From: a virus | DNA: 48,855 nt | Reading direction: 5' to 3' (one strand) | Virus record (IMG/VR): IMGVR_UViG_3300047388_000092 | Coordinates: 1-48,855 of that record | In this document: piece by piece, positions 1,450-43,660 of the stretch | Layout: every line of letters begins with the position of its first letter | Numbering within the stretch: the first letter of the stretch is position 1 | The notes under the pieces: model-generated | Database searches by the model: none | What the model was told of the DNA's origin: nothing | Seen by the model: only the letters and a program-made list of their open reading frames with translations | Program-made: the position numbers and the translations under genes

Positions 1450-1472
1450 ACAAATTCAACGATTGAAAATGT
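1450..1472 (+). repeat. Start-associated palindromic motif, copy 1 (ACAAATTCAA CGA TTGAAAATGT)
   Basis: Fills the capsid-stop (TAA 1446-1448) to next-ATG (1473) spacer almost exactly. Confidence 0.9.
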
Positions 1473-1841
1473 ATGGCAGCAATTCCTTCTAGTTATATCA
1501 CCTATACACGACGTTGGTCGGAGGGAGGTCAAGCGAGGAAAGACCGAACGGTCAACCTCATTGTGATCACTGTTCCGAAATCCGATGCCACGGCATATGG
1601 TGATGCGACAAATACGGTTCCAGCAACGATCTTTGGCCTAAAAGTGCTGGAAGAATGTGATGGTGCGGTGGATAACTTGAATAATCTTGTTATTTGCTCA
1701 CCATCTTTTGACGGAGTCAACGTCTTAACCTATGACATAACGAACGCTACTGATGCAACTCGGAATGCGCCCGCGGCCATGTTTAAGAGGATTGACATAA
1801 ACACACCGGGAGTCTTTTATCTTCAAATAAAAGGCTACTAA
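1473..1841 (+). CDS. Hypothetical virion protein (head accessory/decoration candidate)
   Basis: 122-aa ORF starting 1 nt after motif copy 1. The role is suggested only by its position after the capsid gene. No motif recognised. Confidence 0.5.
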   Translation: MAAIPSSYITYTRRWSEGGQARKDRTVNLIVITVPKSDATAYGDATNTVPATIFGLKVLEECDGAVDNLNNLVICSPSFDGVNVLTYDITNATDATRNAPAAMFKRIDINTPGVFYLQIKGY

Positions 1842-1854
1842 CAAAAGGAAACAA

Positions 1855-2043
1855 ATGAAAATACCGAACCTTCGAAAACAAGTTATCACTTCCACAGATG
1901 GAAAGCGGGTGACTGAAACTTCTCAACTCTCTGGTGAAGCAAAGCGCTCGCCAGTTGAAAACGAGAAGAACCAAACGGTTCAGGAATTCACCGGCAAGGG
2001 CAAAGGCTCTGGTCCGTGGGGCGGTGAAAATACTGGAAGCTGA
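1855..2043 (+). CDS. Small hypothetical protein
   Basis: 62-aa Lys/Gly-rich ORF filling the 1842..2045 gap, with AAGGAA a few nt upstream of the ATG. Weak evidence. Confidence 0.3.
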   Translation: MKIPNLRKQVITSTDGKRVTETSQLSGEAKRSPVENEKNQTVQEFTGKGKGSGPWGGENTGS

Positions 2044-2045
2044 AC

Positions 2046-4778: not shown

Positions 4779-4801
4779 ACAAATTCAACACTTGAATATG
4801 T
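4779..4801 (+). repeat. Start-associated palindromic motif, copy 2 (ACAAATTCAA CAC TTGAATATGT)
   Basis: The ATG inside the right arm (4798-4800) is in frame with the 4762..6393 ORF. Confidence 0.9.
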
Positions 4802-6451: not shown

Positions 6452-6868
6452 ATGTGGCCTCTTTTTCTTGAGAGTTTTGATTCCTTGATTGCACCAAAGG
6501 GGGCCAATATGACAAATCTCACGGTGGACGAGTTGTTCAAGACTTTACTTCATCTTGCAGTTTATCCCGAGAATGGTTTCTTAGGATGCCTCTACAATAA
6601 AAATGGAGGATTTCTTGGTTACGTAGCAGCTATTTCAACTTCAATCGCTTTTCGTCCTTCTGCGTTGCAGATGTTCGCAATTTATTCTAACGAGAAATGT
6701 CCTTCCACACCTAAAGAGCTAATTTACGAACTTAAAGAGTGGGCAAGGAAGCATGGGTTTTCCAAGCTCCATGCAACAATGTTTCGTAAATCTGGAACAG
6801 CACGTAATTTCTTCAAGTTTAAACTTGGGATGAAGGAAAATGGTTTTAATTTCGAGGTCGAACTATGA
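6452..6868 (+). CDS. GNAT-like acetyltransferase fold protein (start uncertain)
   Basis: This is the downstream part of track ORF 6275..6868, whose upstream part overlaps the previous gene. Start is ATG 6452, with GTG 6416 also possible. The segment FAIYSNEK...ELKEWARKHGFSKLH resembles the GNAT beta4-alpha3 core. Confidence 0.4.
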   Translation: MWPLFLESFDSLIAPKGANMTNLTVDELFKTLLHLAVYPENGFLGCLYNKNGGFLGYVAAISTSIAFRPSALQMFAIYSNEKCPSTPKELIYELKEWARKHGFSKLHATMFRKSGTARNFFKFKLGMKENGFNFEVEL

Positions 6869-7305
6869 TGGGGCGAGATGCCACTATTCATGATCTTGGT
6901 GAACTCTATGAAATCACAGTGGCCTTTCTTGACGAAATGCTTTGGAAGTATGAGCCAGAGAGAATTGTCAAATTCTTCTCGAACCGAATTGGAATCGAGA
7001 AAAATGTGGTTCGCATTGTGGAAGCGAATAACAAAATCGTTGGTATCTTTGTGGCCTTCGTTGACACTAATGTTTTCTCTGGTGAGAAATTTGGCCATGA
7101 CAATTTCTTCTATGTTGATCCAGATTTCCGCAACTCCGAAGTGGCCATTTGTCTCTATCGCGAATACCTTGACTGGGCTAGGTCAAAGGGGTGCAAAGAG
7201 TCATTGTGGAATGTTTATGGCCGAACCTCCAAAGATCGACTTCTTCGGGTCCTTGAAAAAATGGGACAGGAGAGGATTGGTTATATTGTAAAAGAAACAC
7301 TTTGA
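6865..7305 (+). CDS. GNAT-family acetyltransferase-like protein
   Basis: 146 aa. FFYVDPDFRNSEVAICLYREYLDWARSKG resembles the GNAT acetyl-CoA-binding segment. The start overlaps the previous stop. Confidence 0.5.
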   Translation: MMGRDATIHDLGELYEITVAFLDEMLWKYEPERIVKFFSNRIGIEKNVVRIVEANNKIVGIFVAFVDTNVFSGEKFGHDNFFYVDPDFRNSEVAICLYREYLDWARSKGCKESLWNVYGRTSKDRLLRVLEKMGQERIGYIVKETL

Positions 7306-9544: not shown

Positions 9545-9993
9545 TGGGACAGATGGTTGGAGGGGCTGCGCAGGGTTTTAGTGAGGCACAGAAACCTTTT
9601 GATTTGACCTCAATCATGTCAATGGGAGGGAACGTGGCAACTATGGCTCCAACTCCTAGTGCTTCTCAACAGCAATCTTCGGTTCCTCAACTAAATCAAC
9701 AGGCTACAGTTGAGGGAGATAATCCTTACCTAAAGCAAATGGACCAAACGAATGGGATGGTTCAGGATTCGCTTAACCAAGCCAAACCGGGAGCACTAAC
9801 CCAAGGAATTCGCAAGGGAGTTAACCAAGCGGAGAACATGTCCCAAATGGGAGCAGGACAGCTAATCGACCATGTGGGCCAAATGTTTGGTGCAAAGCCT
9901 CTCCAACCAAACCTCGTTAGCCTCGGTAACGCCGCGGGTTCTGGTGATGCAATGGCTGGTATCACCCAACTCCTGGGTCTCTTTGGCCTCTAA
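9544..9993 (+). CDS. Internal virion protein candidate (Gln/Met/Gly-rich)
   Basis: 149 aa. The start overlaps the previous stop (TAATG). Confidence 0.4.
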   Translation: MGQMVGGAAQGFSEAQKPFDLTSIMSMGGNVATMAPTPSASQQQSSVPQLNQQATVEGDNPYLKQMDQTNGMVQDSLNQAKPGALTQGIRKGVNQAENMSQMGAGQLIDHVGQMFGAKPLQPNLVSLGNAAGSGDAMAGITQLLGLFGL

Positions 9994-9994
9994 A

Positions 9995-10017
9995 ACAATT
10001 TCAATCATTGAAAATGT
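9995..10017 (+). repeat. Start-associated palindromic motif, copy 3 (ACAATTTCAA TCA TTGAAAATGT)
   Basis: Occupies the spacer between the stop TAA (9991-9993) and the ATG at 10018 of the giant ORF. Confidence 0.9.
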
Positions 10018-13000
10018 ATGGATAATTCTCAAGTTCCAGAAACTGGTATCCAAACCTCCGCACCACCAAAGCCTCTTGACTACGCCGGAGTCATGGACCT
10101 GTGGTCAAGGATTAAGGACAATCCAGCCATCAAGCAACAATTCCCGGATATGGGGGCAATGTCTCGTTGGTATGGGCAACAGACGGGTTCACCATTGTTG
10201 GCAGCAGGGGAGAAACCAAGCAAGATTAAGGACATTTCAGTTGGCCTTGACAAGTTGCTTGAAAAGACAGGCTTACCCGCGACGGCTGGTCAGGCAGTTG
10301 GAGGTCTTTATGAGAAGCTTGGACTCAAAAGGGAATCTGGGGAGCAACTAGGCCAAAGCCTCCCTCGTTCCTTCGCAGAAGTTGGTGCCCTTCTTGGTGG
10401 TGCGGCGATGATGGGAACTCCTGCCGCGCCGCTTGGAGCTGGTCTAATGGCCGCTGGTATTGCTTCACCAGCCGCTAAGACCTACGAGGAAACCGGCTCT
10501 CCCGTTGCTGGCCTTATCACAGGTGGGCTTCAAGCCGCACTTCCTGCTTCGGGTAGTCTAGGCCGCGCGGCTTTGGCTCCGGTTGGTCGAGCGTTGCTTG
10601 GTAAGGAAGTTCTCGACCAAGGAGTTAAGCAAATCATTCCAAGGTTCACAGGGAAAGGTGGGGAACTAATGATGAAAGCATTTGACTACCTTGGAGGTCA
10701 AGCGGGGGTTCTTGGGAACATGGAGGCTTCTAATGTGGGGGTTAACCTAGCCATTGGACAAAGTCCAGATTTCTCAGCCGAACATTGGGCAGGTCTAGGT
10801 CTTCAAATGCTTCCCACACTTCCTTTTGAGGTCAAAGCTGCAATTAAAGGACCAGAGCTTTCTCCAACAGGCCAACGGCCGTTCAACAGCTTTCTCGAAC
10901 AAAGCATGGCGGCTAAGAACCTCCAGAATCAATCAGTGGACAAAGCTGCCAAAGCCAAAGCTGTGGTCAATCGAATGCAAACCACAGAGGCAAGCCAGAA
11001 GACTCGTGTGGAAGGCAATGCGTCTGCTTATGATCCTTTTGACCCCTCGCAAGCTTTCGACATTTCCCACGCCTACAGTTCCTTCGGCGATTGGACCCGC
11101 GATGAGAATTCGACTCCTTCGGAAACCACAATGGGGATTAAGTCAGCTCAGCCTGCCCAGACAAGCCCGCGGTGGAAAGTGGGTGACGCGATTGCGATGC
11201 GGAATGGGGACATGAAAGTCACCCGAGTTGAACCCGGAGAAACACCTTATTATGAACTCAAAAACGACAAAGGATTCACACTTGGAATACCAGAGTCAAA
11301 TCTCATCCCTGAACAAGCAGCGAAAGCAATTGTTGCTACTGCAAGCGATCCTGTCAATGTCCCTACCACAGTTGAGAAAATGGCTGCTACGATGGTTGCA
11401 TCTAACGAAGTCAAAGGAGCAACTGGAGAACCTGCGGTTTCTGACCAGACGCTCATTGGTAAGATTGGAGAACAAGTTGATTCAGGAGCGGGACAAGGAG
11501 AAGCGGCGATTAAGGCGTCGAGAGCTATATTGAACGATGCGGTGAATTCGGTTGAGAAGTTAAATTGGGTTCACGAGGAAATGAAAAATCGTGGTTTAGA
11601 CCCTAATCGAACTTTCAACGATATTGACTTAGCCAATCCATCCGTGGTTGATGCAATCAAAAAAGACCCAACTTTAACTGAGGAGCAAAAAAGTCAACTT
11701 CTTAAAACTGGTTCTTTGAAACCTTTTTCAAAATCAACCAAAACTTGGCAAGAGTTGCGTGGTCAAGATGAAAAATTACAACAAAATATATCAAATTGGT
11801 TAGAAGGAACTGGACCAAAACCGGAAGAACCTACCACTTTGTATAGGGGAGTTCCTTCTGGAACTGAGCCAAAAGTCAATGAGAAATATACGCACACTTC
11901 TCCTTGGGGATACGTGGCTTCTCGTGGTGGTAAAGGTGCATTTGGTGATCCACGAGCATATGAAGTCCACGAAGCAAAAGCACAAAAAGGACATTTATAC
12001 TATCGTGGTGGTGCTCTTTCTGAATCACCTTTAGAGTCAACTCGGATAATGAACGCTAAGGGTATGACTTGGAATCAAGTTTTGGATGAGGGAAAAAAAT
12101 TATTTGATAGTAGAGTAACTAGAAGGTTAGCACGTTTGCAAAAAACAAATCCTGATTTTGCTGATTGGTCTGAAGTCGATCTTGAACAAGCAAGAAGTGA
12201 TGCAATTCGAGATGAACGCAATCGTGTTATTCATGATATACAAGTAGCTTCTTTTGAAGCCGACTTGAAAAATAAGCCGGGTCAATGGGCAAGTGGTAAT
12301 TTACCTAAAAAAGCAAATCGTCCGAATCCTGTTCTTCTTACTAGAGATGAAATAGACACTGCTTTGAAGAACAAACCACTTTCTGTCATTGAAGCAGTTT
12401 CCGATGGTGCGGAAAGAGATAAGGCAACAATGAAAGAGAACGCACCTGTTCTTGGTGCCCCAGTCACCCTCGAAGAAGCACAGGTTCACAAACCCAAAAT
12501 CTCCCAAAAAGAACTTGATCGCGTCAACGTTGTCATGGAGCAAATGCTCAACGGGCAGATTCAATGGAGGCTTGACACGAAGAAGAATAAGTGGCAATTC
12601 ACCTATTCCGACTACGCCGCCGAGGATTTGTTCAAGGCTTTTGGAACGAACAAGGATTCTATTGCGAACTGGTTGAGGTTGAATCGTGGTCTGTTACAAA
12701 AAATCATGGGTGACCGCTTGGCCAAAGGTGGCAAGATTGAGGCTTCAGGTGACTTCCAGCCTTTTGGTTCGACTCCGGAGTTGGTTGGGATTCCAACACA
12801 AATGCCACTTAACATTCCTCTTGGAGCTTCGGCTAGGTTATTCTTCCGCGACTACTTCCTCCGAAAAGGATATGGTGCAGAGAATGCCGAGCACTTGGCA
12901 GAAATTTCACAAAGAGTGGGTTCTTTGTTTCCAGAAATTGACAATATCCATCTGGCCAAGTTGACGACCTCAGAGTTCCTCCAAGGGAAGCTTTTTGGTA

Positions 13001-16000
13001 TTTTCCAACACACCGAACAAGGCTTGATTGGGATTTCTGATACCGAGGCTATTCGTGGAAACCGACCTTTCAATCAGTTCTTCAAGCTAGCCACCTTTGG
13101 TCATGAAGCCTCGCATGGACTCATTCGCGCCTACAACGAAGGCAAGCTTGACCCTGAGCGTGCACAGATGATGAGGAATGTCATTGATACCGTTTCCAAC
13201 TATAATGGAATCGAGAGACAAACCATCATGAACGACCTCTTCAAAATGGTTGTTCCCAAGGAAATCCAAAACGATCCTAATGTCAAAGACTTCATCAATC
13301 GCGCGGTGATCTCATCCTCAGAAACCCCCGCGGAGTTTGTGGCGGAATATGGGGCACTCATGGCGCTTGGATTGTCTAGTCCTGCGGAGTTCAAGGGGAC
13401 AGCAAGCGATTTGCGTCAATATATTCTCTTTTCACCTAAGCACCTTGGAGAGTTCGCCGCAGGCAACTTCCTTGACATGGCGAATATGGCTGAGGCTGTG
13501 GGGCATTATTTGAATGTTTATGGGGGGAGATCGAACGCAATGGCTGTGGATGTGACAAATATGTCCAAAGCGTTTCAGAGGCTTGCAAGAACCAAGCAAG
13601 AGATGGAACAAATTGAAAGACAGTTGGTCAAGTTCAACAACAACCTCGAAGGCGGCATGCCTAGTTTCTACGGCCAAATCTACGCGCAGGAGGTTCGCAC
13701 TCGTAATGCTTTTGGTGGGAAGATGGATGAGACATTGAGGGACATGGATGCGCAGTTCATTGCAGCAGCTAAGAGTCCCAACTTTGGTCTTGAACCAAAC
13801 TTCTATGAAAGGAACTTCCTTCCGGCAGCACAATTTGCCGAGAGGTTTCCAATTTGCAAACCAATCATCGATGTGGCCTATGGTTTTCGTAGCCTTGCAA
13901 ACCAATTCGGAATGAACCTTCTTCGTCCATTCATGGGAGCGGACAAGAAAGGGAAGCTCACCCTTGACCCGGAGCATTCAGGTTTGACTAGAATCCTCCA
14001 AGACCCCAAGCTCCAAGATGCTATCAGTGCAGTTTTCCTTGAGCAGAACGCCCGGATGAAAGAAGGGAAGGTTCAAGAGCCAATGACTCCTCAGGAAATC
14101 TCTGACGTAGCCTCGCGGTTTGGAGTTGGCAAGAATGATGCGGACATAATTGTGAATCAATTTGGAGCCACAATGCAAGCAATGCAACAAGCTAGGGAGA
14201 CTAGACTCCGCGCGGGAATTCAAAGAGTTGGAGTTACTGTGGCTCATCGTTTTTTGGGAGTCAATGGACTTGATGCAACCTCCGCACATTATTATGGCAC
14301 TCAACTTTCAGAGGCCATGTGGGAGAAGTCTTTGGCCACTCAAGAAGGGAATTTGGTTGCTGCTCAACAAGCTGATTTGCAACTTCAATCTATTGCCAAA
14401 GTTGTTGGTCCTGAACCTTTTCAAAATGCGGTTAATGATGCTACGGATTTACACAAGATTTTAGCCACTCAAAAAACCGCCGATGACGCTCAACCCTTTT
14501 ACACCCCCGAGGTTCGTCTTGGGCGCTATTTTGTTCGCTACACCTTCACAGACAACGAGAAGCCCTTTGTGATGGGTTACAAGACTAGAGCTGAGATGGA
14601 AGCTCAAGTTCAGAAAGCGCAAGGAATGGCTAACGTCAACTCGGATTCTATCAATGTCTGGGACGCGGCAGATAAGAGGTCAGATAGCAATTTGTTGAAC
14701 TCCAACGCAGCTAGAGCTTATACCCAGTTGGAGAAGGCTGCTTTTGACAAAGCCAAAGCAATCTCACTTTCCCGCGATCCTGAGTTGGAATCAGTGTTCG
14801 ACAAGCTTAGCTATCAACCGGGTGAAGCAGTTTACAAAGAAATGCTTGCTCGTGGTATGGGAAAGCACACTCTCCAGCGCTCCTTAACACCCGGCCGAGA
14901 ACAGTTGAATATGATGGAAGGAGTGGTTAGCTATCTCAATGGACTAGGGGCTGGCTTGTCCAAGAATTATACCAAAGACCTTGCGATGCTTCACTTGTCC
15001 GATCCTTCCATGACAGAGAACCCCAAGGTTCGTAATTTGATGAGAGATTACATTTCCCAAGTGGTGGACCCTCCCGCGAAGGAATGGGGGAAAGTCAAGA
15101 TGGGAATTTTCCTGTCCACGCTTGGGATGAACTTTTCCTCGATTGTGGTCGAAAGGCTGCAACCCTTATTTTCTTTGGTTCCTTACCTCACCCAAAACGG
15201 TTCTGGAATAATGGGGAGTTACAAATATATGGGAAAGGCTTGGGGACTTCTCTCCAAGCTCAAAGTTGAGCAAGGAAAGATGTCGGGGATTGACCCTGAA
15301 CTTTCCAATGCTCTCTCTAAAGCTGTCGAGAACAAAGTTGTTGACTATGGAATCTATGACGAACTCCCACATCAAAGTGACCTCCAAATTACCAATCTGC
15401 GCAACCTCGCAACTAATTCACCAAATGTCATCAAGTCAGCTGCCAGCCTCGCAACAAAGCCTCTCGCTGCTTACGCAAGCTTTGCTAGAAACCTATACAC
15501 AAATCAGGCTTCGACAAGTTCAAGAACTGCTTTCTTGGCCTCGTATTTACTTGGAAAAGACAAGGGAATGTCACCTGATGCAGCTTACAACTTTGCCACC
15601 CAAGCAACACGAGCAACCATGCATGGTGGAGGTTCTGCTGCCCGTCCCATTGGGGCCTTTAATAACTTGGGAAAGCTTTATGGTGCTGCCAGTGCCCTCT
15701 ACTGCCTCCAGCATTATACCACAAGTTCCATTGGAATGTTATACCGCATGGCAATGGACGGATTTTCTTCTAAGAGACAAGAGGGCATGTCGAGTGAGCA
15801 GATTAGCAACATGAAGAAAGGGTTCACGCAGATGTTTGTGACGCAGGTTGCGGCATCTGGTGCAATGGGACTTCCTTTTCTTGGTTTTGCCGCAGCAGGG
15901 TTAGAGCAGCTTTTGCCGAACGCTCAGATTAAAGCTAACCTTCGTGAAGGATTGGCGTCCCTTGGAGGTGACGACCAAGAAACTGGCCAAGCAATCTCCG

Positions 16001-16914: not shown

Positions 16915-17977
16915 CATTGTTGTAGTCCTGCTCATTGGCGTCGTTCCAAAGGATTGAACGGAGCTGCTTCTCGGACATTTCCGCGCGGTGCATTTCGAGG
17001 ACTTGGATCATTTTGTTGGTGACTTGGGTTAGCTCGTTCCGTCCGATGCCTTGAAACACTTGAGGCAACTTCTTCTCAACAGAGCCTAGCAAGTCCAGAG
17101 CTGTCCTCAAGTGCGCCTCCTCGATCATTAGGCTAGTTCCCTCGCTAAGAGCCACAAGCATGGAAATCTTGAGAACAAGAACGTGCTTGGAATCATAGTA
17201 TCCTTGAAGGGAAATATCCTTCGTTTCCTCCATTTCCAAATACCATTTTTCGAAGAACGCTTTGGCATTTGGTGCCCATAGGAATTGGCCGACGACTCCT
17301 TTCAGTCTCCTTCCATGCTGCACGCATCTATCCCATGCGTCTTTTTGTTCTGGTGTAACCTTCGGAAATGGGACTCTCCTAGCTTTGGTCGTTTCAAATA
17401 CGAACAAATTACGACGACTAAAACCACCAGATAGCACATCGTCACGTAGATGACGAGTAATCCATTCCGGAGTGTCGCAAGCAAGGATGCAGAGGAACGG
17501 GTTGGTGATGATGATGTCTTCTTTATTCCGGGTTTTGTAGTCATAGTAATCTTGGTCCCAAACTGCTACGGTGAAGGAGATCATGTTTTGGAGAGAGACT
17601 CCAAGGAAGTCTTTGAGTTCTCCCACGCAAACCGTCATTGGCATATAGGTCTTTGGTTGGCCGTTGACAAGATAAGCGATTTCGTTGGAGGACATTTGTT
17701 TGATTAGGCCTTCGCGGGACTCAAGCTGCGCGGCGAAATGTGTATCTCCAATCTGTCGCATCATATCTTTCGAGAGAAACATAGCAGTAGATTTACGATT
17801 GCCAGCTGGACCAACCAACACAACATAGATGTTCGGATATATCCATTGATGACCATAATCAATCCACACCCGACGACCAACAGTTGAAGCAAGAGCAACA
17901 AAAGCGCTCCAGACGTGATAGTTTGTATGGGCTTCATTACATTCGTTGAAGAAAAGGTAGTCTCGAAGAAAAGACAT
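16697..17977 (-). CDS. P-loop NTPase, replicative helicase candidate (SF3 / VirE-D5-like)
   Basis: Walker A GPAGNRKST lies about 60 aa from the N-terminus, followed by an acidic strand VCVGE. The track start (TTG at 18004) only translates motif copy 4, so the ATG at 17977 inside the motif is preferred. The 3' end overlaps the giant ORF by 218 nt. Confidence 0.6.
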   Translation of the reverse strand: MSFLRDYLFFNECNEAHTNYHVWSAFVALASTVGRRVWIDYGHQWIYPNIYVVLVGPAGNRKSTAMFLSKDMMRQIGDTHFAAQLESREGLIKQMSSNEIAYLVNGQPKTYMPMTVCVGELKDFLGVSLQNMISFTVAVWDQDYYDYKTRNKEDIIITNPFLCILACDTPEWITRHLRDDVLSGGFSRRNLFVFETTKARRVPFPKVTPEQKDAWDRCVQHGRRLKGVVGQFLWAPNAKAFFEKWYLEMEETKDISLQGYYDSKHVLVLKISMLVALSEGTSLMIEEAHLRTALDLLGSVEKKLPQVFQGIGRNELTQVTNKMIQVLEMHRAEMSEKQLRSILWNDANEQDYNNARDHLHQSGRLVRWKSGQKEMLALTEFVPSAVQQLLARAGEKGQGASGANGQPSPLESTPDDLDFLFRGGQT

Positions 17978-17996
17978 ATTCAATCGTTGAATTTGT
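17974..17996 (-). repeat. Start-associated palindromic motif, copy 4 (minus strand: ACAAATTCAA CGA TTGAATATGT)
   Basis: Abuts the polymerase stop codon (TGA, 17997-17999). Its internal ATG (17977-17975) is in frame with the helicase-like ORF. Confidence 0.9.
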
Positions 17997-24185: not shown

Positions 24186-24208
24186 ACATTTTCAATCATT
24201 GAATTTGT
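24186..24208 (-). repeat. Start-associated palindromic motif, copy 5 (minus strand: ACAAATTCAA TGA TTGAAAATGT)
   Basis: The 3-nt spacer TGA is the stop codon of the PLD-like gene (24196-24198). Confidence 0.9.
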
Positions 24209-26557: not shown

Positions 26558-26559
26558 TG

Positions 26560-27977: not shown

Positions 27978-28333
27978 AATGGGTCATTGAAATAGAGGAC
28001 CACTCGTCCATGTTTTTGTGGAACAGAAAGTTGAAGGTCAGGATACCAAACGGTTGCTTCAATGGTTCTATCTGGTAGATTCATGACAGGAAATCTCTTC
28101 ACAAACCATTGTGGCATACAGTCTCGTTTGAAATGTTGCCACCATGAACGTGGAGTTCCTTTGATGGTTATTGTTTTTTGTCGTTCTCCAAGGACAAGAG
28201 CACGAAGTTGGAAAACTAAATCATCGGTGAAGTTCTCGGCATATTGGTAAAAATCTGCTTGGTAAGTTGCAAGATGCTTACGAAGCTTGCCTTGCATCAT
28301 TAGTGGAATTATTTCCAAGTCTACTTTGGTCAT
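27974..28333 (-). CDS. Hypothetical protein
   Basis: 119 aa. The ATG is preceded directly by the half site ACAAATTCAAC (28334-28344). Confidence 0.5.
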   Translation of the reverse strand: MTKVDLEIIPLMMQGKLRKHLATYQADFYQYAENFTDDLVFQLRALVLGERQKTITIKGTPRSWWQHFKRDCMPQWFVKRFPVMNLPDRTIEATVWYPDLQLSVPQKHGRVVLYFNDPL

Positions 28334-28496
28334 GTTGAATTTGTTTTTGTTGACAAGTTGGACAAAGTCCTGTGGTTTGGTAAGTTTTTGATGATTGGAG
28401 AGTTGGAAAATGGCCTACATCTTGTCCGCAGCCGTGTGGAGATGGGAGACAGAGGCCGCGTTCAATGTAAATCTTCTTTAGGTGGAATGGGTGCAT
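28278..28496 (-). CDS. Hypothetical Cys-rich protein
   Basis: 72 aa. The ATG overlaps the upstream stop (TAATG). The 3' end overlaps the next gene by 56 nt. Confidence 0.3.
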   Translation of the reverse strand: MHPFHLKKIYIERGLCLPSPHGCGQDVGHFPTLQSSKTYQTTGLCPTCQQKQIQHDQSRLGNNSTNDARQAS

Positions 28497-29835: not shown

Positions 29836-30111
29836 TCATTCAAATTTCAGTTGTGCGTCTGGAAAAACCAACGTCTCACCATCACTAGCCCTCTCTGCCA
29901 CCAAGAATCTTGGCGTTGTCGAATGACGGATTGAACTAGCTTGGATTTGAATTTTCGTGTCATTATTCGGGTCCCAAATCCACCAAGTCAAGTAGCGAAT
30001 ATGCGATTTGCTTGGCTTGGCGACGTTCGGCGCGGTTTGGTCCTGTTCTTGCTTTTGGCTTTGGTTGTCCTTTGCGAGGACTTTTCCCAACTCCACATTC
30101 AATGCGCTCAT
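29836..30111 (-). CDS. Hypothetical protein (ambiguous pair with 29963..30235)
   Basis: ATG-initiated part (MSALNVELG...) of track ORF 29836..30288. The C-terminal half looks beta-rich and protein-like. Confidence 0.35.
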   Translation of the reverse strand: MSALNVELGKVLAKDNQSQKQEQDQTAPNVAKPSKSHIRYLTWWIWDPNNDTKIQIQASSIRHSTTPRFLVAERASDGETLVFPDAQLKFE

Positions 30112-30235
30112 ATGTTGATTGTTGTGTTTTGTAATAGACGTTTGGGTCAAGAGAAACTTTTGGATTGTAGCTCCTTGGTTTAGGGTCAAGCTGGTCAAAG
30201 CTTGGAGGGGCAGTGATGGTTTGGTAAGGAGCCAT
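29963..30235 (-). CDS. Hypothetical basic protein (ambiguous pair with 29836..30111)
   Basis: 90 aa. The ATG at 30235 lies 3 nt downstream of motif copy 6. It overlaps the other frame by ~150 nt. Confidence 0.35.
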   Translation of the reverse strand: MAPYQTITAPPSFDQLDPKPRSYNPKVSLDPNVYYKTQQSTYERIECGVGKSPRKGQPKPKARTGPNRAERRQAKQIAYSLLDLVDLGPE

Positions 30236-30238: not shown

Positions 30239-30261
30239 ACAAATTCAATGATTGAAAATGT
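30239..30261 (+). repeat. Start-associated palindromic motif, copy 6 (plus strand: ACAAATTCAA TGA TTGAAAATGT), the only copy oriented against its flanking genes
   Basis: The flanking genes are on the minus strand. The ACAAATTCAA arm points toward the gene-free segment 30262-30406. Confidence 0.9.
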
Positions 30262-32710: not shown

Positions 32711-32965
32711 TTAGATTGTTACTTGATGGAACGTATGCGTAGTGCTCGAAAACACAAGCATCGTTGGTTTTGGTTGAACAACCTTCTTGCTCCAAGAGCG
32801 GAGTTCTTTGTGAACTTCTTGGAAGGCTTGACAAACTACGCGGTTGGCATTAGCTGCCACGAAACGGCGAACTTCGTCTCGGGTGAATTTGAGTTTGCGT
32901 CCATTTCCAGTTCCATCGCACTTCGTAGCTCGAGGAACAATTTCAATGGTTGAATTTGTTTTCAT
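32711..32965 (-). CDS. Hypothetical protein
   Basis: 84 aa. ATGA overlap with the upstream gene. Codons 2-9 (KTNSTIEI) are motif copy 7. Confidence 0.45.
   Translation of the reverse strand: MKTNSTIEIVPRATKCDGTGNGRKLKFTRDEVRRFVAANANRVVCQAFQEVHKELRSWSKKVVQPKPTMLVFSSTTHTFHQVTI
32937..32959 (-). repeat. Start-associated palindromic motif, copy 7 (minus strand: ACAAATTCAA CCA TTGAAATTGT)
   Basis: Begins 3 nt after the ATG at 32965. This is one of the two copies whose right arm lacks an ATG. Confidence 0.9.
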
Positions 32966-33303
32966 ATTTCAAGTTCAATTAGAAGTTTAGCAACGTCAAT
33001 TGTTCTTCCTTTCTTTTGACTCTCTTTAACAGGCGTGCCGTCTGTGAAGGAGACAACGGCATCTTGTTGCTCTGGATTAAACCAATCAAAATGTCCTTGA
33101 CAGATTTCGCCTCGTTCGTTCTCAAGGTAACAGAGAATTCCATTGGTGGCAAGAACGAAACCTCTAAGGTTCGGCAGGCCATTGATGGAACCAAGGCAGG
33201 GCTTGGTGAGTCGCCAGTTGTCGAATTGGCGATGTTGGAGCTTGTGCGCGAGGAAGAATTCGTGCACGGAGTGGTATGGATTTTGTCCAAGTTGGATTTG
33301 CAT
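32962..33303 (-). CDS. Hypothetical protein
   Basis: 113 aa, preceded by a 146-nt non-coding spacer. Confidence 0.5.
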   Translation of the reverse strand: MQIQLGQNPYHSVHEFFLAHKLQHRQFDNWRLTKPCLGSINGLPNLRGFVLATNGILCYLENERGEICQGHFDWFNPEQQDAVVSFTDGTPVKESQKKGRTIDVAKLLIELEI

Positions 33304-34370: not shown

Positions 34371-34393
34371 ACAATTTCAATGATTGAATTTGT
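34371..34393 (-). repeat. Start-associated palindromic motif, copy 8 (minus strand: ACAAATTCAA TCA TTGAAATTGT)
   Basis: Lies in the spacer between the HNH gene stop (34436) and the ATG at 34351. Confidence 0.9.
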
Positions 34394-34435: not shown

Positions 34436-34921
34436 TTAGTTGTGAGGCTTAATAATCTCTATCCTTGGTTCAAGCGAAACTTGAACTGGCTCTTGGGCGC
34501 TAGGTTGTCTCGCTTCGCTCGCGGTGATTTCTTGTTTAACTCCATTGATGTAACAAAATTGGACTTTTGGTTTCTTTGACCAATTATCTTGCCAATCTTT
34601 TACATTCTCTCCTTGAGTTCCTGCGTAAATATGGCTTGGGTTCACGCATCTAATATCATCACAAGTGTGACAGTGCCAATATGGATGTTTAATCTTTCCT
34701 TTGTATATTGTGAACAAAAGATTAGCGACTTTCCAAAACTTGCCACGAAAGGTTGTTGTTGGATAATGGTTTCTTTCCATCGATGGTTTGTAATACCAGC
34801 AACCATTTTCTTGAACTTCAAGCTTATTTCTTAACTTCATTCCTTCCTCTAATGTTGGTTCAATCTTTTCATTCCACTCTATCCTATTTGTTTGATCTGG
34901 TATTTGTTCTTCATTTCTCAT
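34436..34921 (-). CDS. HNH homing-type endonuclease
   Basis: CHTCDDIRCVNPSHIYAGTQGENVKD matches the CxxCDN..C.NP.HL..GT...N pattern of phage HNH_3 endonucleases. Confidence 0.75.
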   Translation of the reverse strand: MRNEEQIPDQTNRIEWNEKIEPTLEEGMKLRNKLEVQENGCWYYKPSMERNHYPTTTFRGKFWKVANLLFTIYKGKIKHPYWHCHTCDDIRCVNPSHIYAGTQGENVKDWQDNWSKKPKVQFCYINGVKQEITASEARQPSAQEPVQVSLEPRIEIIKPHN

Positions 34922-35395
34922 AACTCATTATTTCATTGATTGATTGATCTGGTCGGTTGATTGATGCGTCGAAGCAGCCTGCGAAGGGAGGGAGAATATT
35001 ATGAGACCGGGTTCCATATGTATATGAAAAAAAAAAAATTAACAATAACAAAGGGTTCCACCCTTCTGTTCCTTTTCATTTGTCAAATTAAAATTGTCAT
35101 AAGAATATTCATAAGCTTCTCAGCACCTAAGCTTGACGCATTCATGCACCAACCTTGCATATCTATCTATGAATGTCAATAAGCTTCTAAGCTTGACAAC
35201 TTGGGAGCTGGTTAGCTTGGCTGCTTTCTAGCTTATCCTTTGAAGCCAAGGTTAGCACTTGAGGCACGTTAACGGGTAGCGACGCCTTTGTTCGAGCCGC
35301 GTGCCTGTCATCCAGCTTATAGCGGAACTTAAAATCCTTGGTTGAAGTTGAGCGGAACTAGAAGCCATTTTATAGCGATTAACAAATAGGCCACA

Positions 35396-35438
35396 AAACA
35401 AAAAAGGGGAGTCAGGAGCCACTTGGCTCCCAACTCCC
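35396..35438 (-). terminator. Rho-independent terminator after 35449..35730
   Basis: Minus strand reads GGGAGT-TG-GGAGCC-AAGT-GGCTCC-TG-ACTCCC followed by CTTTTTTGTTTTG. Confidence 0.8.
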
Positions 35439-35448: not shown

Positions 35449-35730
35449 CTATTGGACGCTGGCCATCAGGTTGGCCGCGAGCGCCGTAGCTTTGGTCTTC
35501 TTCTCGCTGAACTTGGCCTGCTTCCGCGCGGAGCTGTTGCTCCCATACGCGCAGCACTCTTGCATTGCGGCCAAGTCCTTGGGATCAGCCTTTTGGATTT
35601 TCAGCATGGTCGTGGCCGTGATTGCACCACAAACATTCTGGTCCCACTTTGGCTCCGTGATCTCGTTCTTTTCACAGATTTGATCACAAACCGAATCCCA
35701 CAAACCACGAACTGCTTCCTTTGTCATCAT
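35449..35730 (-). CDS. Cys-rich hypothetical protein, monocistronic leftward unit
   Basis: 93 aa from ATGATG at 35730 (MMTKEAVRGLWDSVCDQICEK...). It has its own terminator. Confidence 0.5.
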   Translation of the reverse strand: MMTKEAVRGLWDSVCDQICEKNEITEPKWDQNVCGAITATTMLKIQKADPKDLAAMQECCAYGSNSSARKQAKFSEKKTKATALAANLMASVQ

Positions 35731-36006
35731 AATGCTAACCTTTCTCTCTCCCTCGCAGAGCGGGCGATTGCCCACAATTCCCGCGAGGAAATCGCATGAC
35801 GCAGAAGCTTTTGTCAAAGCGCGGCGAGAGGCATGAATCCCCTCAACCATAGCCCGAAGCGCCCTATCCTGCCTTGCCGACCCTTCCCCTGCCAAAAGGG
35901 GTTCCCTTCCCCAAGGGGGTTCGAGTTGGCCTTTTTTATCTCCTTAACCAGATTTTTCAAATTCAACTTCCACTTGTCATGGAGAAAGGAGAAGCTGGGA
36001 AGCTGG

Positions 36007-36222: not shown

Positions 36223-36915
36223 ATGTCCGAAGAAATAACATTGCTTAAAGTGATGAGTGAGGGAAGTTCCCGTGACGGGCGCGCGGCGAATACGCGTCGT
36301 GAGAATCAGGGTGGTTTGGTTAATGGCCGACCAAACCCTCAAGCTTTTGTGAACGACTCGATTAGTCAAAGCTTGGCGGACCAATACATGAGGGACGCAC
36401 AAGCCCTCCATGGCCCAAAAGTTCCAAATCTTGCCATTGACCATGAGAAAGCGGAACATCGGCTGATTCTCATGTATAAACTTCGCGGGGATTCAAACCG
36501 CGAAATCGCCCAAAAAACTGGTTACTCCGAATCTTGGATTAGCCAAGTTACCCGCCAACCTTGGTTTCAGCAAAGGTTGGTTAACTCCCTTGAAGAAGTT
36601 GAAGGTGAAATTCTGGATGAAATCGTCAAAGTCGAAGCAAAGAACTCGGTATTCAAGCTGGTCCAACTTCGAGACACAGCGAAATCAGAGCAAGTCCAAC
36701 TTGGCTCCGCTATTGAACTCCTTAATCGTCACCTTGGAAAGCCTGTGCAAAGAACTGAAACCACTGCTAATGTCTTCCATGTCTCTGCAAAACTTGGAGA
36801 CATTGACAAACAGCTTGCGGAAGTTGAAGCGGAGGAACAAAGGCTTTTGAGAAATGGTTCCACGATTGAGCCGACCCGCGAGGCCGCCGAGGCCGAGTTG
36901 CCAATCCCCCGTTAA
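36223..36915 (+). CDS. Terminase small subunit candidate (HTH protein; a late regulator is an alternative)
   Basis: 230 aa directly upstream of terL. Helix-turn-helix NREIAQKTGYSESWISQVTRQ, and a later AIELLNRHLGKP segment as in small terminases. Confidence 0.5.
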   Translation: MSEEITLLKVMSEGSSRDGRAANTRRENQGGLVNGRPNPQAFVNDSISQSLADQYMRDAQALHGPKVPNLAIDHEKAEHRLILMYKLRGDSNREIAQKTGYSESWISQVTRQPWFQQRLVNSLEEVEGEILDEIVKVEAKNSVFKLVQLRDTAKSEQVQLGSAIELLNRHLGKPVQRTETTANVFHVSAKLGDIDKQLAEVEAEEQRLLRNGSTIEPTREAAEAELPIPR

Positions 36916-36928: not shown

Positions 36929-36951
36929 ACAAATTCAATCGTTGAATATGT
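36929..36951 (+). repeat. Start-associated palindromic motif, copy 9 (ACAAATTCAA TCG TTGAATATGT)
   Basis: The internal ATG (36948-36950) is in frame with terL. Confidence 0.9.
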
Positions 36952-40836: not shown

Positions 40837-41462
40837 TGAGACGCCGTGAGTCCATAATAAAATCCGTCAAGATCATCACGGGCCTAATCTTCGTGCCGAA
40901 GTTGATTCGTGCTCAGGTTCAACTCAGCAACGCGCAGTTGTCGAATACGCAAGTATTGCCAGTGAGTAGTGGTGGTTCGCCTTGCACAACGCTACGGGAT
41001 ACGTTTGGCACTAGCAGCGGCAACTTGTGGGATAACACGACCTATCTCTATTTTGCGTCGTCGTTCGATGCCTCTGCGTCCTACCCAAATTGCACGCAGA
41101 TATGGAGCTTCAAACGCACGGGCAATCCCCCCGGAACGGTCAAGGGGGCTATTTACGACAACGCTACCGACCGGCCCGGAAGCATCGTGGGGACGGCTGG
41201 CGACACAGTGAACGTCTCAACGATAGGCACGTCTCAGGGCGACATTACGTTGCCAAACATTGCAGCCAGCCTGACGAACGGAACGCACTATTGGGCGATG
41301 GCGATATTCAGTGTGGCGGGCATGGACGCCAGCAACAAGATTGAGGGCTACTACGGATTTGATGGGATTGCGACTCATGAGGATTGGGTATCTACAAACG
41401 GCAGCACATGGGCCAAACTGGAAGGCAGTTCGGGGTTCAAGGGAGCGGCTTATTCAACATGA
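40836..41462 (+). CDS. Hypothetical tail-associated protein
   Basis: 208 aa within the GC-rich segment. The start overlaps the previous stop. Confidence 0.5.
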   Translation: MRRRESIIKSVKIITGLIFVPKLIRAQVQLSNAQLSNTQVLPVSSGGSPCTTLRDTFGTSSGNLWDNTTYLYFASSFDASASYPNCTQIWSFKRTGNPPGTVKGAIYDNATDRPGSIVGTAGDTVNVSTIGTSQGDITLPNIAASLTNGTHYWAMAIFSVAGMDASNKIEGYYGFDGIATHEDWVSTNGSTWAKLEGSSGFKGAAYST

Positions 41463-42322
41463 GATTCGCGCTTTTACTCCTACTCCCGATGGTCGCCAGC
41501 GCGCAATACAACGTGACGCACTATCAGACTTTCAGCGGCGGCACTCAGGGCGCGGCGGTTACGGCGGCGACGCTGACCAATGGCCTTGTCGGGGCTTCAA
41601 TGGCGTGGGCGGTTGTGAATCAGAACAGCGGCATGACGTTCGACACAAACCATTTCGTGCCGATGATCGGGGCTATCACGGTTAACGGGGTGACGACGAA
41701 CGCGATGGTGAACGGGTTTGCCATGAAGGTGAACAGCGCAGAGACGCCAAGCGTTTACTTCACAGCGACGCCGCAGTATCAGACAACCTCGATGTCTATA
41801 GGCTGCTGGCTAGTTACGGACTTTCCCGACGACGTGCTAGAGAATCACGATTTCTTTACCGTCCAAGGCGGTGGGGTGGGACAGAACTCTTTCGTCAACC
41901 CGCCGTGGTATGGGGATCAGGCGACCACCCTCAAACTGCTTTGGGAGGCGTGCCCCGGCTCGCCGGTTGTCAGTGACTCGATTCTATTTCACGGCGGGCT
42001 AACGAATCGCTACTGGATAACCGAGGGATACAACATCGGAAGCACTAATTGGAATTTCGTGTCGATATACCTCAACGGCACGAATCTCGTAGGCACGATG
42101 AAGACCAACTACAACATGCCGCAACTTGCGCTCTATGGGGTTGTCGGCTCACATTCGACAGGAAGTTATCCATCGAGCACAAATCACTTTTGGTTCAGCA
42201 ACTTCGTGATGAACACGAACGGCGTGTTTCCATTGTTGCCGGGAACTCCTAGTGTGGCGGCAAGCACAACGCTGAACGTGACGACGTTGAATGTGGATAG
42301 GATAACATCTCAGCAGCCATGA
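41459..42322 (+). CDS. Hypothetical tail-associated protein with signal-peptide-like N-terminus
   Basis: ATGA overlap. MRFALLLLLPMVASAQ. It is the in-frame part of track ORF 41384..42322. Confidence 0.5.
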   Translation: MRFALLLLLPMVASAQYNVTHYQTFSGGTQGAAVTAATLTNGLVGASMAWAVVNQNSGMTFDTNHFVPMIGAITVNGVTTNAMVNGFAMKVNSAETPSVYFTATPQYQTTSMSIGCWLVTDFPDDVLENHDFFTVQGGGVGQNSFVNPPWYGDQATTLKLLWEACPGSPVVSDSILFHGGLTNRYWITEGYNIGSTNWNFVSIYLNGTNLVGTMKTNYNMPQLALYGVVGSHSTGSYPSSTNHFWFSNFVMNTNGVFPLLPGTPSVAASTTLNVTTLNVDRITSQQP

Positions 42323-42347
42323 CCCTTCATGTCAGCATACTAATAAA

Positions 42348-43637
42348 ATGAAAAAACTAATTCTTCTTTTCCTTCCTTTGGTTGGTTTAGCACAACCAGT
42401 AATTACGCCAACTCCTTTCACATTAAATTGGATTGAACGTTCAAGAGATGCTCAAGTTGCCCGTGCAAGACTTGGTTTTTCGACAAATGCTTTTAATCAG
42501 TTCACAATAATTGCCTCGAATACGTTAGCAGCAAACCTCACAACGTTTTCAGGAGGAACATTTAATCACTATCCTGCTCTTGCAACAGGAAATGCTTATA
42601 CTGCTATGTATGTTCGAGACACCGCAATGGCAATTCGTGGGGCAACTGATTTGGTTTCGGTCAGCTTATTGTCCAACATTTGCGTAACTCTTAAATCTCT
42701 CCAACCAAATCGAAATGGAATGGACGTGGGTTGGGATTCGTTTATTGATTTCACGTCAAGTCTTGGATTTGGTGGGTTTCAGCGAAGTGAGTCCGATCTT
42801 TGCTATGAGTATGTTGATTTAACCTACTCCTATTATCAAAAAACAACTAATCTTTGGGCGTTCACAAATGCTTTTTCTGCAATTACAAATGCTCTTTCGT
42901 TCTACCAAATTTCGAACCATTTAGCTTACACTTATTTGCGTTCTCCAATAACTAATCAAACTGGTTGGGGCTTTGAAGATTCAGTTCTTGAGTATGGTTA
43001 TATTCTAATGCCAAGCGTTCTTCGCTATCGAGCTTACTCTCAAATTGGAGAAATGATGAACGCTTGGGGTAAGGATGGTTCAAGTTATACTAATGAGTTA
43101 CCTTTCATAACAACAAACTTGCAAACATATTTGTGGGATGGCAATGTTGGACTTTTTAAAACCTGCACTATTCCTGCCACGAATGCTTGTCATAATATTC
43201 CGGGAAGTGCCTATGCCGTTGTGGTTGGTTGCGTTCAATCAAACGTTTCTTATCAAATTAGTCAATGCCTTCTTGACCTCTATGCTGACCGTGAGTTTCG
43301 TCATGGGATGACCCGACATTTGAAAATGCCCGAGTATTTTGGTGCTGGAACAACCAATGCTCAGCCTTTTAGTGCTGGATTAAGTCCAAACGACACTTAT
43401 CAATCAGGTGGCTATTGGCCTCTTTTTACTCCTTGGGTGGCTCGTGCAATGGCAAATTTAGTTCCGGAAGCTGGAGATCGGTTCATGCAGGAGCTTGCGA
43501 GACGGGAAACTTTGATGGGTCCGCTTGAGGATGAGAGTCCTTTGACATGGGCGGGAACTTCCGCGACGGTTGGTTCCGCGAGTTATCTTGCTTCTGCTTG
43601 TTGTCCACGTTCCTATTGGACATGCACGAATCGATGA
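42348..43637 (+). CDS. Possible (alpha/alpha)6-barrel glycoside-hydrolase-like protein with signal peptide
   Basis: 429 aa with N-terminus MKKLILLFLPLVGLAQP. YTAMYVRDTAMAI, GWGFED and YQSGGYWPLFTPW are reminiscent of six-hairpin glycosidases. Weak. Confidence 0.35.
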   Translation: MKKLILLFLPLVGLAQPVITPTPFTLNWIERSRDAQVARARLGFSTNAFNQFTIIASNTLAANLTTFSGGTFNHYPALATGNAYTAMYVRDTAMAIRGATDLVSVSLLSNICVTLKSLQPNRNGMDVGWDSFIDFTSSLGFGGFQRSESDLCYEYVDLTYSYYQKTTNLWAFTNAFSAITNALSFYQISNHLAYTYLRSPITNQTGWGFEDSVLEYGYILMPSVLRYRAYSQIGEMMNAWGKDGSSYTNELPFITTNLQTYLWDGNVGLFKTCTIPATNACHNIPGSAYAVVVGCVQSNVSYQISQCLLDLYADREFRHGMTRHLKMPEYFGAGTTNAQPFSAGLSPNDTYQSGGYWPLFTPWVARAMANLVPEAGDRFMQELARRETLMGPLEDESPLTWAGTSATVGSASYLASACCPRSYWTCTNR

Positions 43638-43660
43638 ACAAATTCAACCGTTGAAAATGT
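43638..43660 (+). repeat. Start-associated palindromic motif, copy 10 (ACAAATTCAA CCG TTGAAAATGT)
   Basis: Abuts the stop TGA (43635-43637). The next ATG is at 43662. Confidence 0.9.

Follow-up and report, generated by a model that had tools for sequence, protein, structure and literature searches.

A palindromic, operator-like repeat with an invariant core and lineage-specific arms at the gene junctions of a metagenomic SU10-type podovirus

Genome organization

The IMG/VR virus record IMGVR_UViG_3300047388_000092, analysed here over its whole length of 48,855 nucleotides (the window), carries a 23-bp palindrome with a 3-nt centre, which recurs ten times, at nine gene junctions and once within the 5' end of an open reading frame (ORF). 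Judged from its predicted proteins, the window is a metagenomic podovirus with a SU10-type capsid and portal. Positions 1-127 and 48729-48855 form an identical terminal overlap of 127 nt, the capsid gene start at position 84 recurring at the end, and a circularly permuted version of the contig is present in a Logan assembly; because of both, the genome is a circle of ~48.7 kb (about 48,728 bp). No close relative was found among GenBank phages, the top polymerase match being 26% identical.

The gene calls, which are ORF-based, form two divergent arms. The structural arm lies on the plus strand and runs from ~35.8 kb through the origin to 16.9 kb; the structural proteins encoded are a SU10-type major capsid protein, a portal, a large terminase (TerL) and a small-terminase-like protein. 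The replication arm, on the minus strand from ~35.9 to 16.7 kb, encodes a family A DNA polymerase fused to a uracil-DNA glycosylase domain (PF03167; gene 17997-20543, minus strand, the fusion being shared by its homologues), a DUF3987 helicase-like protein, a ParB_N-methyltransferase and a ligase, and further a PD-(D/E)XK nuclease, an AAA_24 ATPase and an HNH/His-Me endonuclease.

The repeated palindrome

An exact scan of the window with the pattern ACAAWTTCAANNNTTGAAWWTGT gave ten sites, beginning at 1450, 4779, 9995, 17974, 24186, 30239, 32937, 34371, 36929 and 43638, and reproduced in full the set of copies reported in an earlier note on this DNA. The count in 100 dinucleotide-preserving shuffles was zero, and a tolerance of three mismatches revealed no extra 23-mer site in the window. 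Of the 11 occurrences of the 11-base core TCAA-N3-TTGA in the window, ten belong to the ten sites. The left arm reads ACAAATTCAA in nine of the ten copies, the right arm exists in three variants, AA (five copies), TA (three) and AT (two), and the spacers comprise eight different triplets. The ACAAATTCAA arm is 5' relative to the gene direction in all copies except that at 30239. All of these arm variants, spacers and orientations are as the earlier note had listed them. Each gene arm carries five copies, which are ~1.4-8 kb apart.

Beyond one or two A's 5' of the motif, nothing is conserved in the flanks of the copies. No conserved promoter element adjoins the sites, and -35/-10 hexamers at a spacing of 16-18 bp are not enriched in the window over shuffles. 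The terminator scan of the window marked none of the ten copies, whose stems are A/T-rich and not followed by a T-run, and the Rfam 15 covariance models matched none of the sites, with a single chance-level match elsewhere in the window. Isolated half sites in front of other starts had also been proposed. This stands for one left arm, ACAAATTCAA at 28335..28344 on the minus strand, which is followed by C and then by the ATG of ORF 27974-28333 (ACAAATTCAAC-ATG); half sites with one mismatch outside the full copies are about as many as expected by chance.

Three other possibilities were set aside. A mobile element of the MITE or REP type is not supported, as the flanks share only ~2 nt and a transposase is absent. 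An apparent second motif, AGTTCAGAAAG (67 and 48795), is an artefact of the 127-nt terminal overlap and chance. A target or nick site of a homing endonuclease was considered in view of the HNH/His-Me gene beside copy 8 and the ligase gene; no evidence for it was found, and the HNH genes are not position-conserved.

The palindrome in related phages

Searches with the capsid protein returned more than 1,000 homologues at E <= 1e-20, and the capsid and polymerase homologues represent a large family of 45-50-kb metagenomic phages. The comparison covered fetched parts of eight lineages, all of them partial contigs (identified below by L numbers), and each lineage has its own dyad. In L256/L260, with a capsid 69% identical to that of the window, it reads ACAWTTTCAA-SCC-TTGAAAWTGT. 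The group L257/L261/L265 (capsid 63%) has 11 sites of the form RGTAWTTTTCAA-TCA-TTGAAAAWTACY, and L262 (capsid 61%) has TAATCCTCAA-NNN-TTGAGGAAAAC, with five different centres in five copies. The dyad is RGT-N5-TCAA-NNN-TTGA-N5-ACY in L259 (capsid 59%) and TGTTCAA-TWA-TTGAACA in L263 (capsid 54%). L266, reached through a 47%-identical homologue of a 223-aa early protein, has AAC-N4-TTCAA-GSS-TTGAA-N4-GTT; L014 (TerL 49%) has RTCAA-TAA-TTGAY; and L008/L001/L002, the polymerase of which is 27% identical, has GRACAWWTTCAAAWTTTGAAWWTGTYC.

An alignment of 53 sites revealed that T9, C10 and A11 together with T16, T17, G18 and A19 are invariant and A12 nearly so, which gives the core TCA(A)-N3-(T)TGA. 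The outer arms (23-mer positions 1-6 and 18-23, in some lineages to 12 bases from the centre) vary by lineage and are uniform among the copies of one genome. Symmetry is retained through these changes: 80.7% of the cells pair over the 53 sites versus 68.1% in shuffles, and 92 cells are changed on both sides versus 44.8 in shuffles, either value being reached by none of 500 shuffles. Slid controls of the same alignment gave 29-48% pairing.

The element occupies orthologous junctions in syntenic relatives, a point on which the earlier note had staked its proposal. Shared sites follow TerL and, directly or with one gene in between, the capsid gene; they precede the giant gene, the portal gene, the helicase gene and the orthologue of 29963-30235; and they cover the stop codon of the phospholipase D (PLD)-like gene. 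The capsid proteins of the phages sharing them are 54-69% identical. Further intragenic sites were found in L256 (21228) and L263 (14206). Arm-head regions without called genes also contain sites, namely L265 at 489, L266 at 5286 and 6070, L259 at 130 and 1039, and L262 at 479. Two of these early-arm heads, L265 1-1460 and L266 4835-6305, extend over 1.4-1.5 kb with palindrome copies inside and could be an origin or a non-coding RNA region; the L266 locus also carries a (CCAA)n-type repeat, AACCAACCAA, eight times.

Family members further removed lack the element. Among 64 TerL-based relative loci (<=49% identical), the TCAA-N3-TTGA element was found only in L014; the repeats in L060, L065 and L070 are tandem or clustered and of a different kind. 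The element is absent from L264 (capsid 52% identical), in the syntenic structural module of which the same genes are joined by 3-nt spacers. This locus (GCA_019694135.1, JAIBCM010000001.1, 481-503 kb) lies near the end of a 508-kb contig of a Verrucomicrobiae metagenome-assembled genome and could be a prophage or a chimeric join; it is the sole host hint for the wider family. Exact-motif scans of viral collections yielded several copies only in IMGVR_UViG_3300029781_000006 and its near-identical relative. When 185,579 species genomes and 241 million metagenome records were scanned with the exact pattern, the hits were isolated single sites in unrelated, mostly AT-rich taxa (Gemella etc.), and none of the genomes had several copies. 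The two sites of L223 belong to an unrelated Firmicutes-like contig.

In L001 (~430-500, corresponding to L002 ~2810-2880; contig IMGVR_UViG_3300029781_000006), a palindrome copy tops a longer GC-clamped hairpin (CCCCAACTG...CAGTTGGGG) with A/T runs on both sides. The hairpin sits where the two arms converge and, from its sequence, resembles an intrinsic terminator for both directions that was built on the motif.

Relation of the copies to stop and start codons

At several junctions the palindrome accounts for nearly the whole spacer. Copy 1 (1450..1472, plus strand; ACAAATTCAA-CGA-TTGAAAATGT) fills the gap between the stop of the major capsid gene at 1446-1448 and the next ATG at 1473, a start backed by the orthologue N-termini MAA/MAN; in L256 and L259, too, this junction is occupied by a site. 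Copy 3 (9995..10017, plus; ACAATTTCAA-TCA-TTGAAAATGT) separates the stop at 9991-9993 from the ATG at 10018, which opens the gene for a 2,298-aa protein, the start again agreeing with the N-termini of orthologues. A site before this giant gene is also present in L256, L257, L259 and L263, and in L262 a site precedes a truncated ORF at the contig end, possibly the same gene. Copy 10 (43638..43660, plus) abuts the TGA at 43635-43637 and is followed, 1 nt past the motif, by the ATG at 43662.

In two further copies the ATG inside the right arm is itself the start. Copy 4 (17974..17996, minus) abuts the stop of the DNA polymerase gene (17997-17999), and its ATG at 17977 opens the DUF3987 helicase-like gene; the N-terminus of the product is MSFLRDYL in the window and in L261, and MGFLHDYL in L260, with orthologous sites at 13007 in L261 and 12246 in L260. 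Copy 9 (36929..36951, plus) begins 13 nt after the stop of the small-terminase-like gene, and its ATG at 36948 is the TerL start, supported by TerL orthologues that start MS..GE.

Copy 2 (4779..4801, plus; ...CAC...TTGAATATGT) differs from the other nine. It falls within the 5' end of a virion-protein ORF starting at 4762 and encodes EQIQHLNM. The N-terminus is MSSTKEQIQHLNMFGG in the window, MASTKIPVPHHSMFGG in L256 and ...IPVKHDNVLGMDRS in L262, where the internal Met is absent, and an AAGGA resembling a Shine-Dalgarno (SD) sequence stands ~9 nt upstream of the ATG at 4762. The copy is probably intragenic rather than junctional, and 4798 is unlikely as a start, since the orthologues in L256 and L262 begin further upstream than the internal Met and AAGGA precedes 4762. 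It corresponds to codons 6-13 of its gene, seven codons having been replaced with the length unchanged.

The remaining copies are placed more loosely. The spacer TGA of copy 5 (24186..24208, minus) is the stop codon of the PLD-like ORF (24196-24198); the following gene has its own AAGGAGG and starts 19 nt past the motif. The orthologous site in L260 (6499) likewise overlaps the PLD-like stop, with the half-site order flipped. Copy 6 (30239..30261, plus), the sole copy inverted relative to its gene arm, lies 3 nt before the minus-strand ATG at 30235, within a 145-nt intergenic region and after terminator-like hairpins; its L260 orthologue at 1070 has the same orientation. Copy 7 (32937..32959, minus; right arm TTGAAATTGT) begins 2 nt after the stop of ORF 32962-33303, at 20 or 32 nt from the next ATG, depending on an uncertain start. 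Copy 8 (34371..34393, minus), also with right arm TTGAAATTGT, is located 42 nt after the His-Me/HNH endonuclease stop and 19 nt before the next ATG.

Most of the arrangements described in the earlier note were recovered: the succession of stop, one nucleotide, motif and ATG at 1446-1475 and 9991-10020, the abutting TGA codons at 17997-17999 and 43635-43637, the PLD-like stop serving as spacer (24196-24198) and the mini-ORFs of 2-7 codons. Its statement that every copy sits at a gene boundary applies to nine copies and probably fails for copy 2, as the orthologue N-termini indicate. Among the starts it had moved into the right arm, 17977 and 36948 agree with their orthologues (MSFLRDYL/MGFLHDYL and MS..GE) and 4798 does not.

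Taken over the window, an ATG lies inside the motif or 0-3 nt after it at six copies, and at 19 nt from it at copies 5 and 8. Over all lineages, the distance from stop to motif is mostly 0-7 nt, or the stop lies within the motif, and the spread from motif to start is wider, reaching from inside the motif to 70 nt past it. The element is tied to the upstream stop no less closely than to the start.

An SD-like tetramer is found upstream of only ~11 of the 53 window genes. Recurring start contexts are TAG-TT-ATG, that is a stop, two nucleotides and a start, and AACC-N0-3-ATG (examples at 79-86, 44092-44099, 44349-44356, the start of 25793-26767, 31892, 32361 and 45719); the L257 phage has TACCT-ATG after its palindrome. 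Such contexts suggest an unusual, host-specific setting for initiation or re-initiation.

A proposed binding site for a symmetric protein

The earlier note had described the element as a dyad of non-coding type, either a hairpin stem or a dimeric binding site, and this proved the right alternative to pose. Our preference, held tentatively and at somewhat less than an even chance, is that the ten copies are multi-copy operator-type duplex sites for a symmetric, probably dimeric, sequence-specific DNA-binding protein. The reader, encoded by the phage or by the host, would be a symmetric dimer that contacts the two half sites and not the centre; such contacts would explain why the arms are fixed and the 3-nt centre is free within a genome. 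Copies that are alike within a genome and different between genomes point to a trans-acting reader of the sequence. An operator also suits the intragenic sites and those in gene-free arm heads better than a signal between cistrons would.

From the sites, their symmetry, their conservation and the co-variation of their arms we infer the binding of a protein and any effect that it may have on transcription. On both long arms the sites stand at the boundaries of gene blocks, for example behind the capsid gene, ahead of the giant virion protein gene and of the helicase gene, and on both flanks of the large terminase gene. With the genome so compact, a site makes up the entire spacer between stop and start, its letters being reused for stops (spacer TGA, TTGA) and starts (the right-arm ATG). 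The bound protein would gate transcription across or out of these junctions, as a roadblock or as an operator near the start of a transcription unit, in a manner likened to that of actinophage repressors at stoperators and conserved inverted repeats.

Several results weigh against this reading. Searches of ~70 ORFs with Pfam, PHROGs and NCBIfam revealed no repressor, sigma factor or helix-turn-helix regulator, and the early genes have no detectable similarity between lineages. A conserved 223-aa early/middle protein was considered as a sigma factor or regulator and dropped, its AlphaFold2 model (pLDDT 85.2) having no informative match in PDB or BFVD. L008 (polymerase 27% identical) shares the window arm and closer lineages differ, which is not what simple vertical co-evolution with a protein of the phage would give; the identical half site may reflect a host factor common to both, or a reader acquired by horizontal transfer. 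Arm variants or centres are co-oriented with transcription in 9/10 copies of the window (A-type half first), 10/11 of the L257 phage (TCA centre), 6/6 of the L256 phage (SCC), 5/5 of L014 (TAA) and also 4/5 of L008. Our Fisher combination of the orientation counts, with the majority orientation of each lineage set after the fact, gives p ~6e-4, and a purely symmetric duplex site would not predict such a bias. In L001/L002, an intrinsic terminator with a GC clamp and a T-tail has a copy of the motif as its top. Finally, the effect of binding on transcription is purely conjectural, no conserved promoter elements standing beside the sites.

The orientation bias may come from constraints on the sense strand, such as avoidance of a spurious ATG (TCAATGATTGA) or of a G-rich SD-like run, or a supply of stop codons. 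TAA or TGA centres do serve as stops in L263 and at copy 5 of the window. The bias keeps two rivals of the operator alive, one acting in RNA and the other a promoter.

Duplex site or RNA hairpin

In the first of these rivals, which we consider possible and on balance unlikely, the palindrome would be an inter-cistron hairpin folding in the mRNA right after the upstream stop, with the AUG in its 3' arm or just beyond it. Translation of the next cistron would be coupled or gated in this way, since the terminating ribosome melts the stem and so frees the AUG. A variant given the same limited credence would have it mark the mRNA for processing or stabilise its 3' end, with a phage RNA-binding protein as a possible reader. 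The positions suit such a hairpin, most sites having a stop within the motif or 0-7 nt ahead of it, many having an ATG 0-15 nt after it, and the centre, or loop, co-oriented with transcription on both arms. The low share of genes with an SD-like tetramer means that start selection is unconventional, a variant right arm of L256 (TTGAGGATGT) still pairs through two G:U pairs, and the terminator of L001/L002 is topped by a copy of the motif.

The folds themselves argue otherwise. RNA folds of the window copies reach -1.4 to -3.4 kcal/mol with non-significant z-scores against shuffles, and each copy has one or two uncompensated A:A mismatches in a stem of <=10 bp. These hairpins are weak and mismatched, and pairing is not the selected property there. 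The mean stability by lineage ranges from -1.3 to -8.6 kcal/mol, so that stability is not conserved between lineages either. Sense-strand arm mismatches over 48 sites comprise 25 G:T and 25 A:C, so there is no wobble signature of RNA, and no Rfam family matches. A signal of structure only cannot explain identical stems with free loops within one genome, and neither the sites inside ORFs nor those in gene-free regions distant from starts are expected of it. The flip of half-site order between window 24186 and L260 6499 also argues that the arm asymmetry is without function. The suggestion of processing sites like the RNase III sites of T7 does not hold for the same stem properties: at most 10 bp, always mismatched, and no more stable than shuffled sequence.

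A promoter reading

The second rival, which we rate as unlikely and a little below the RNA hairpin, is a phage-specific promoter, at which an unrecognised sigma factor or activator of the phage would redirect the host RNA polymerase, as happens in the related phages phiEco32 and 7-11, and give leaderless or short-leader mRNAs for each block. The ~ten co-oriented copies, 1.4-8 kb apart, head gene blocks in both arms; their sequence is lineage-specific at conserved positions, as with the sigma-dependent promoters of phiEco32/7-11 (PMC8948821); and two sites, window 30239 and L263 4914, follow terminator-like hairpins. Promoters of the sigma-70 type are not enriched in the window, the ATG of the L257 phage is 14-16 nt from the dyad centre at most sites, and the first ~1-1.5 kb of each arm is free of the motif and could encode the factor. 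A promoter has no reason, however, to keep a dyad symmetry maintained by changes in both arms. Copy 2 is downstream of its own gene start, ATGs are found anywhere from within the motif to 70 nt past it, and the transcripts of copies 1, 3 and 10 would open with an out-of-frame AUG. No sigma factor or RNA polymerase was detectable and the flanks are unconserved, and in relatives such as L264 the same genes adjoin with next to no spacer.

Candidate readers

If the sites are operators, their reader may be sought among the proteins of the phage. The protein encoded at 36223-36915, proposed earlier as a regulator, resembles a small terminase (PHROG 2538); it is unlikely as the co-evolving reader, given that its recognition helix W(I/V)SQ(V/I)xRQPWFQ is near-invariant across lineages with differing motifs. 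The ParB_N-methyltransferase is kept in all lineages and was considered and set aside, as a methylase target would be neither confined to junctions nor 23-27 bp long. Neither an integrase nor ParAB was detected in the window.

The reader might instead be a host global regulator, phages of the same host converging on a host palindrome and the differences between lineages reflecting different hosts; we attach a small chance to this variant of the operator. The window has the half site ACAWWTTCAA in common with L256, its closest relative, and with L008, a very distant lineage of similar GC (45-47%); the intermediate phages lack it, and no phage regulator is detectable. Sites of host factors in phage genomes also have a precedent, for example those of CtrA (PMC9437464). 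Against it, the 185,579 species genomes and 241 million metagenome records gave isolated sites and no multi-copy genome, and orthologous host regulators rarely shift specificity as fast as would be required here, with capsids 60-70% identical. To our knowledge, none of the consensus sites of FNR, CRP, Fur, Zur, CodY, Rex, LexA and parS fits the half-site order and spacing.

The earlier note had also proposed a promoter of the N4 type, a single-stranded hairpin for a virion RNA polymerase, which would here reside in the 2,298-aa protein. This is largely refuted and very improbable. The format of a stem with a 3-nt loop is similar, and the giant gene ends the structural arm with a copy directly upstream. 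The 2,298-aa protein and the other ORFs, however, show neither the motifs of a T7-like RNA polymerase (RxxxKx7YG, DxDxD) nor homology to one, and the giant protein has no Pfam, PHROG or PDB match, a three-sequence profile included. It carries an invariant HExxH instead. The loops are moreover unconserved, the closing pair is A:T, and the sites lie in both arms, with five copies in the structural (late) one.

The protein itself, encoded at 10018-16914, has zero database matches, and its HExxH (H1029, E1030, H1033; residues 1029-1033) is invariant in three lineages, which suggests a zincin-like peptidase module of an ejected or internal virion protein.

A last reading combines two functions, and we think it quite improbable, if slightly less so than the host regulator. 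In a clade largely without SD sequences, the palindrome, together with a reader that evolves alongside it, would control two things simultaneously. Binding of the reader, or melting of the element as a ribosome terminates, would then set the expression ratio of neighbouring blocks, and fast divergence of the arms would keep co-infecting relatives from cross-regulation.

Comparison with known systems

The 17-bp repeat TGTTCGG-NNN-CCGAACA of Cluster O mycobacteriophages (the Corndog group), for which a dimeric DNA-binding protein was predicted (PMC4351075), is a 7-3-7 palindrome and the closest published case. It exists in tens of copies in both directions, mostly intergenic and in part in the 5' ends of ORFs, in phages without an integrase (PMC4351075). 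Both elements have inverted arms around a 3-bp centre, with arms invariant and centre variable within a genome, both are spread over both transcription directions, mostly between genes with some copies within ORF 5' ends, and both occur without an integrase. The two also differ. The arms here are 10-12 bp long and the copies only ~10; the window sites are tied tightly to stops and starts, whereas Cluster O sites are not closely start-linked (PMC4351075); co-orientation with transcription is not seen in Corndog; and the present element forms a comparative series of lineage-specific arms around an invariant core.

Stoperators of Cluster A phages are 13-14 bp long and asymmetric, and the repressor that binds them, in temperate phages, is a monomer (PMC4351075). 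They are also oriented with transcription, a property on which the co-orientation counts given above and the flipped half-site order at one orthologous site point in opposite directions for the present element. Like the window sites, they are many and near-identical, occupy short intergenic spaces on both arms, and diverge in sequence between relatives. In contrast, the window site is a dyad of 23-27 bp, and no repressor, integrase or partition system was found with it. The conserved inverted repeats of the Streptomyces phage phiC31 (Ingham et al. 1994) are said to be similar in that many near-identical repressor sites lie in short intergenic spaces and diverge between relatives.

The start-associated sequence (SAS) of Cluster K is, like the present element, a repeated motif directly upstream of the starts of a subset of genes. 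The SAS is asymmetric and resembles a ribosome-binding site. The window element is instead a dyad, tied to stops at least as closely, at a variable distance from starts and with one intragenic copy.

Phages phiEco32 and 7-11 have 6-8 copies of a motif at conserved positions, the motif differing between relatives (PMC8948821). Their motifs lack symmetry (tAATGTAtA; GTAAtg-16-aCTA), stand 6-9 bp away from mapped transcription starts and are read by a recognisable phage sigma factor (PMC8948821). Their capsid/portal lineage is related to that of the window, and the lineage-specific motif at conserved positions is shared; unlike theirs, the window motif is a dyad, with no recognisable sigma factor found.

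Promoters of N4 depend on conserved purines in the loop (-11, -10) and on a G:C pair that closes it (PMC4496689). The inverted repeat with a 3-nt centre is common to both; the T7-like virion polymerase and the early-only sites of N4 are both lacking in the window. As to the RNase III sites of T7, the likeness is that of ~ten inter-cistron marks in a podovirus of 40-50 kb, and the difference that RNase III needs ~two turns of mostly paired RNA whereas the window stem is short and weak. Intrinsic terminators differ as well, the window copies having no GC-rich stem or U tract, with the exception among the relatives of one copy built into a terminator.

As judged from the sequences compared, the element is a dispersed palindromic operator-like repeat, distinct from these systems by its embedded stops and starts and by its clade-wide series of an invariant core with variable arms.

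Other features of the genome

The helicase-like gene runs towards the giant structural gene from the other strand, and the two share ~220-230 nt at their convergence, at 16697-16914 in the window, 13404-13636 in L260 and 14156-14385 in L261. An artefact of ORF calling is unlikely, because the overlap is seen in three lineages. Neither a terminator nor the motif is present at the convergence point of the window (16697-16914). ARAGORN reports a tRNA-Leu(CAG) at 12711-12788 on the coding strand within the giant ORF, which is probably a false positive.

At the head of the minus-strand arm, the first gene (35452-35733, minus) encodes a 94-aa Cys-rich protein with a basic C-terminus, for which no homologue was detected in the relatives. 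Directly after it lies a strong intrinsic terminator (35407-35438, minus) with a 14-bp stem and a T-run, followed by ~0.5 kb without a convincing ORF, with paired AAGCTT-containing repeats at 35100-35197. In its sequence features the region looks like an immediate-early regulatory module.

Free-standing HNH/His-Me genes occupy different junctions in different lineages: 6829-7149, 9675-10004 and 12481-12807 in L261, and 34436-34921 in the window. The L257 phage has three such endonuclease genes flanking the polymerase, and the window has one, adjoining copy 8. This scatter is typical of mobile homing endonucleases.

Biological meaning

At a practical level, the comparison with orthologues corrects three start-codon calls and reveals that the palindrome can overwrite the coding 5' end of a gene (EQIQHLNM). 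SU10-like phages are abundant in metagenomes, and no regulator is recognisable in them. The palindrome offers a handle on their gene regulation, with ~ten sites per genome, positions conserved over long distances, an invariant core and arms that change on both sides. Such a natural series of specificity variants is the type of data from which a reader can be found by co-variation, and it would show how a regulator and its many sites shift specificity jointly. The series also bears on the unexplained palindromes of Cluster O: dispersed dyads of the 'N-3-N' type may be a recurrent punctuation of long operons in phages without an integrase.

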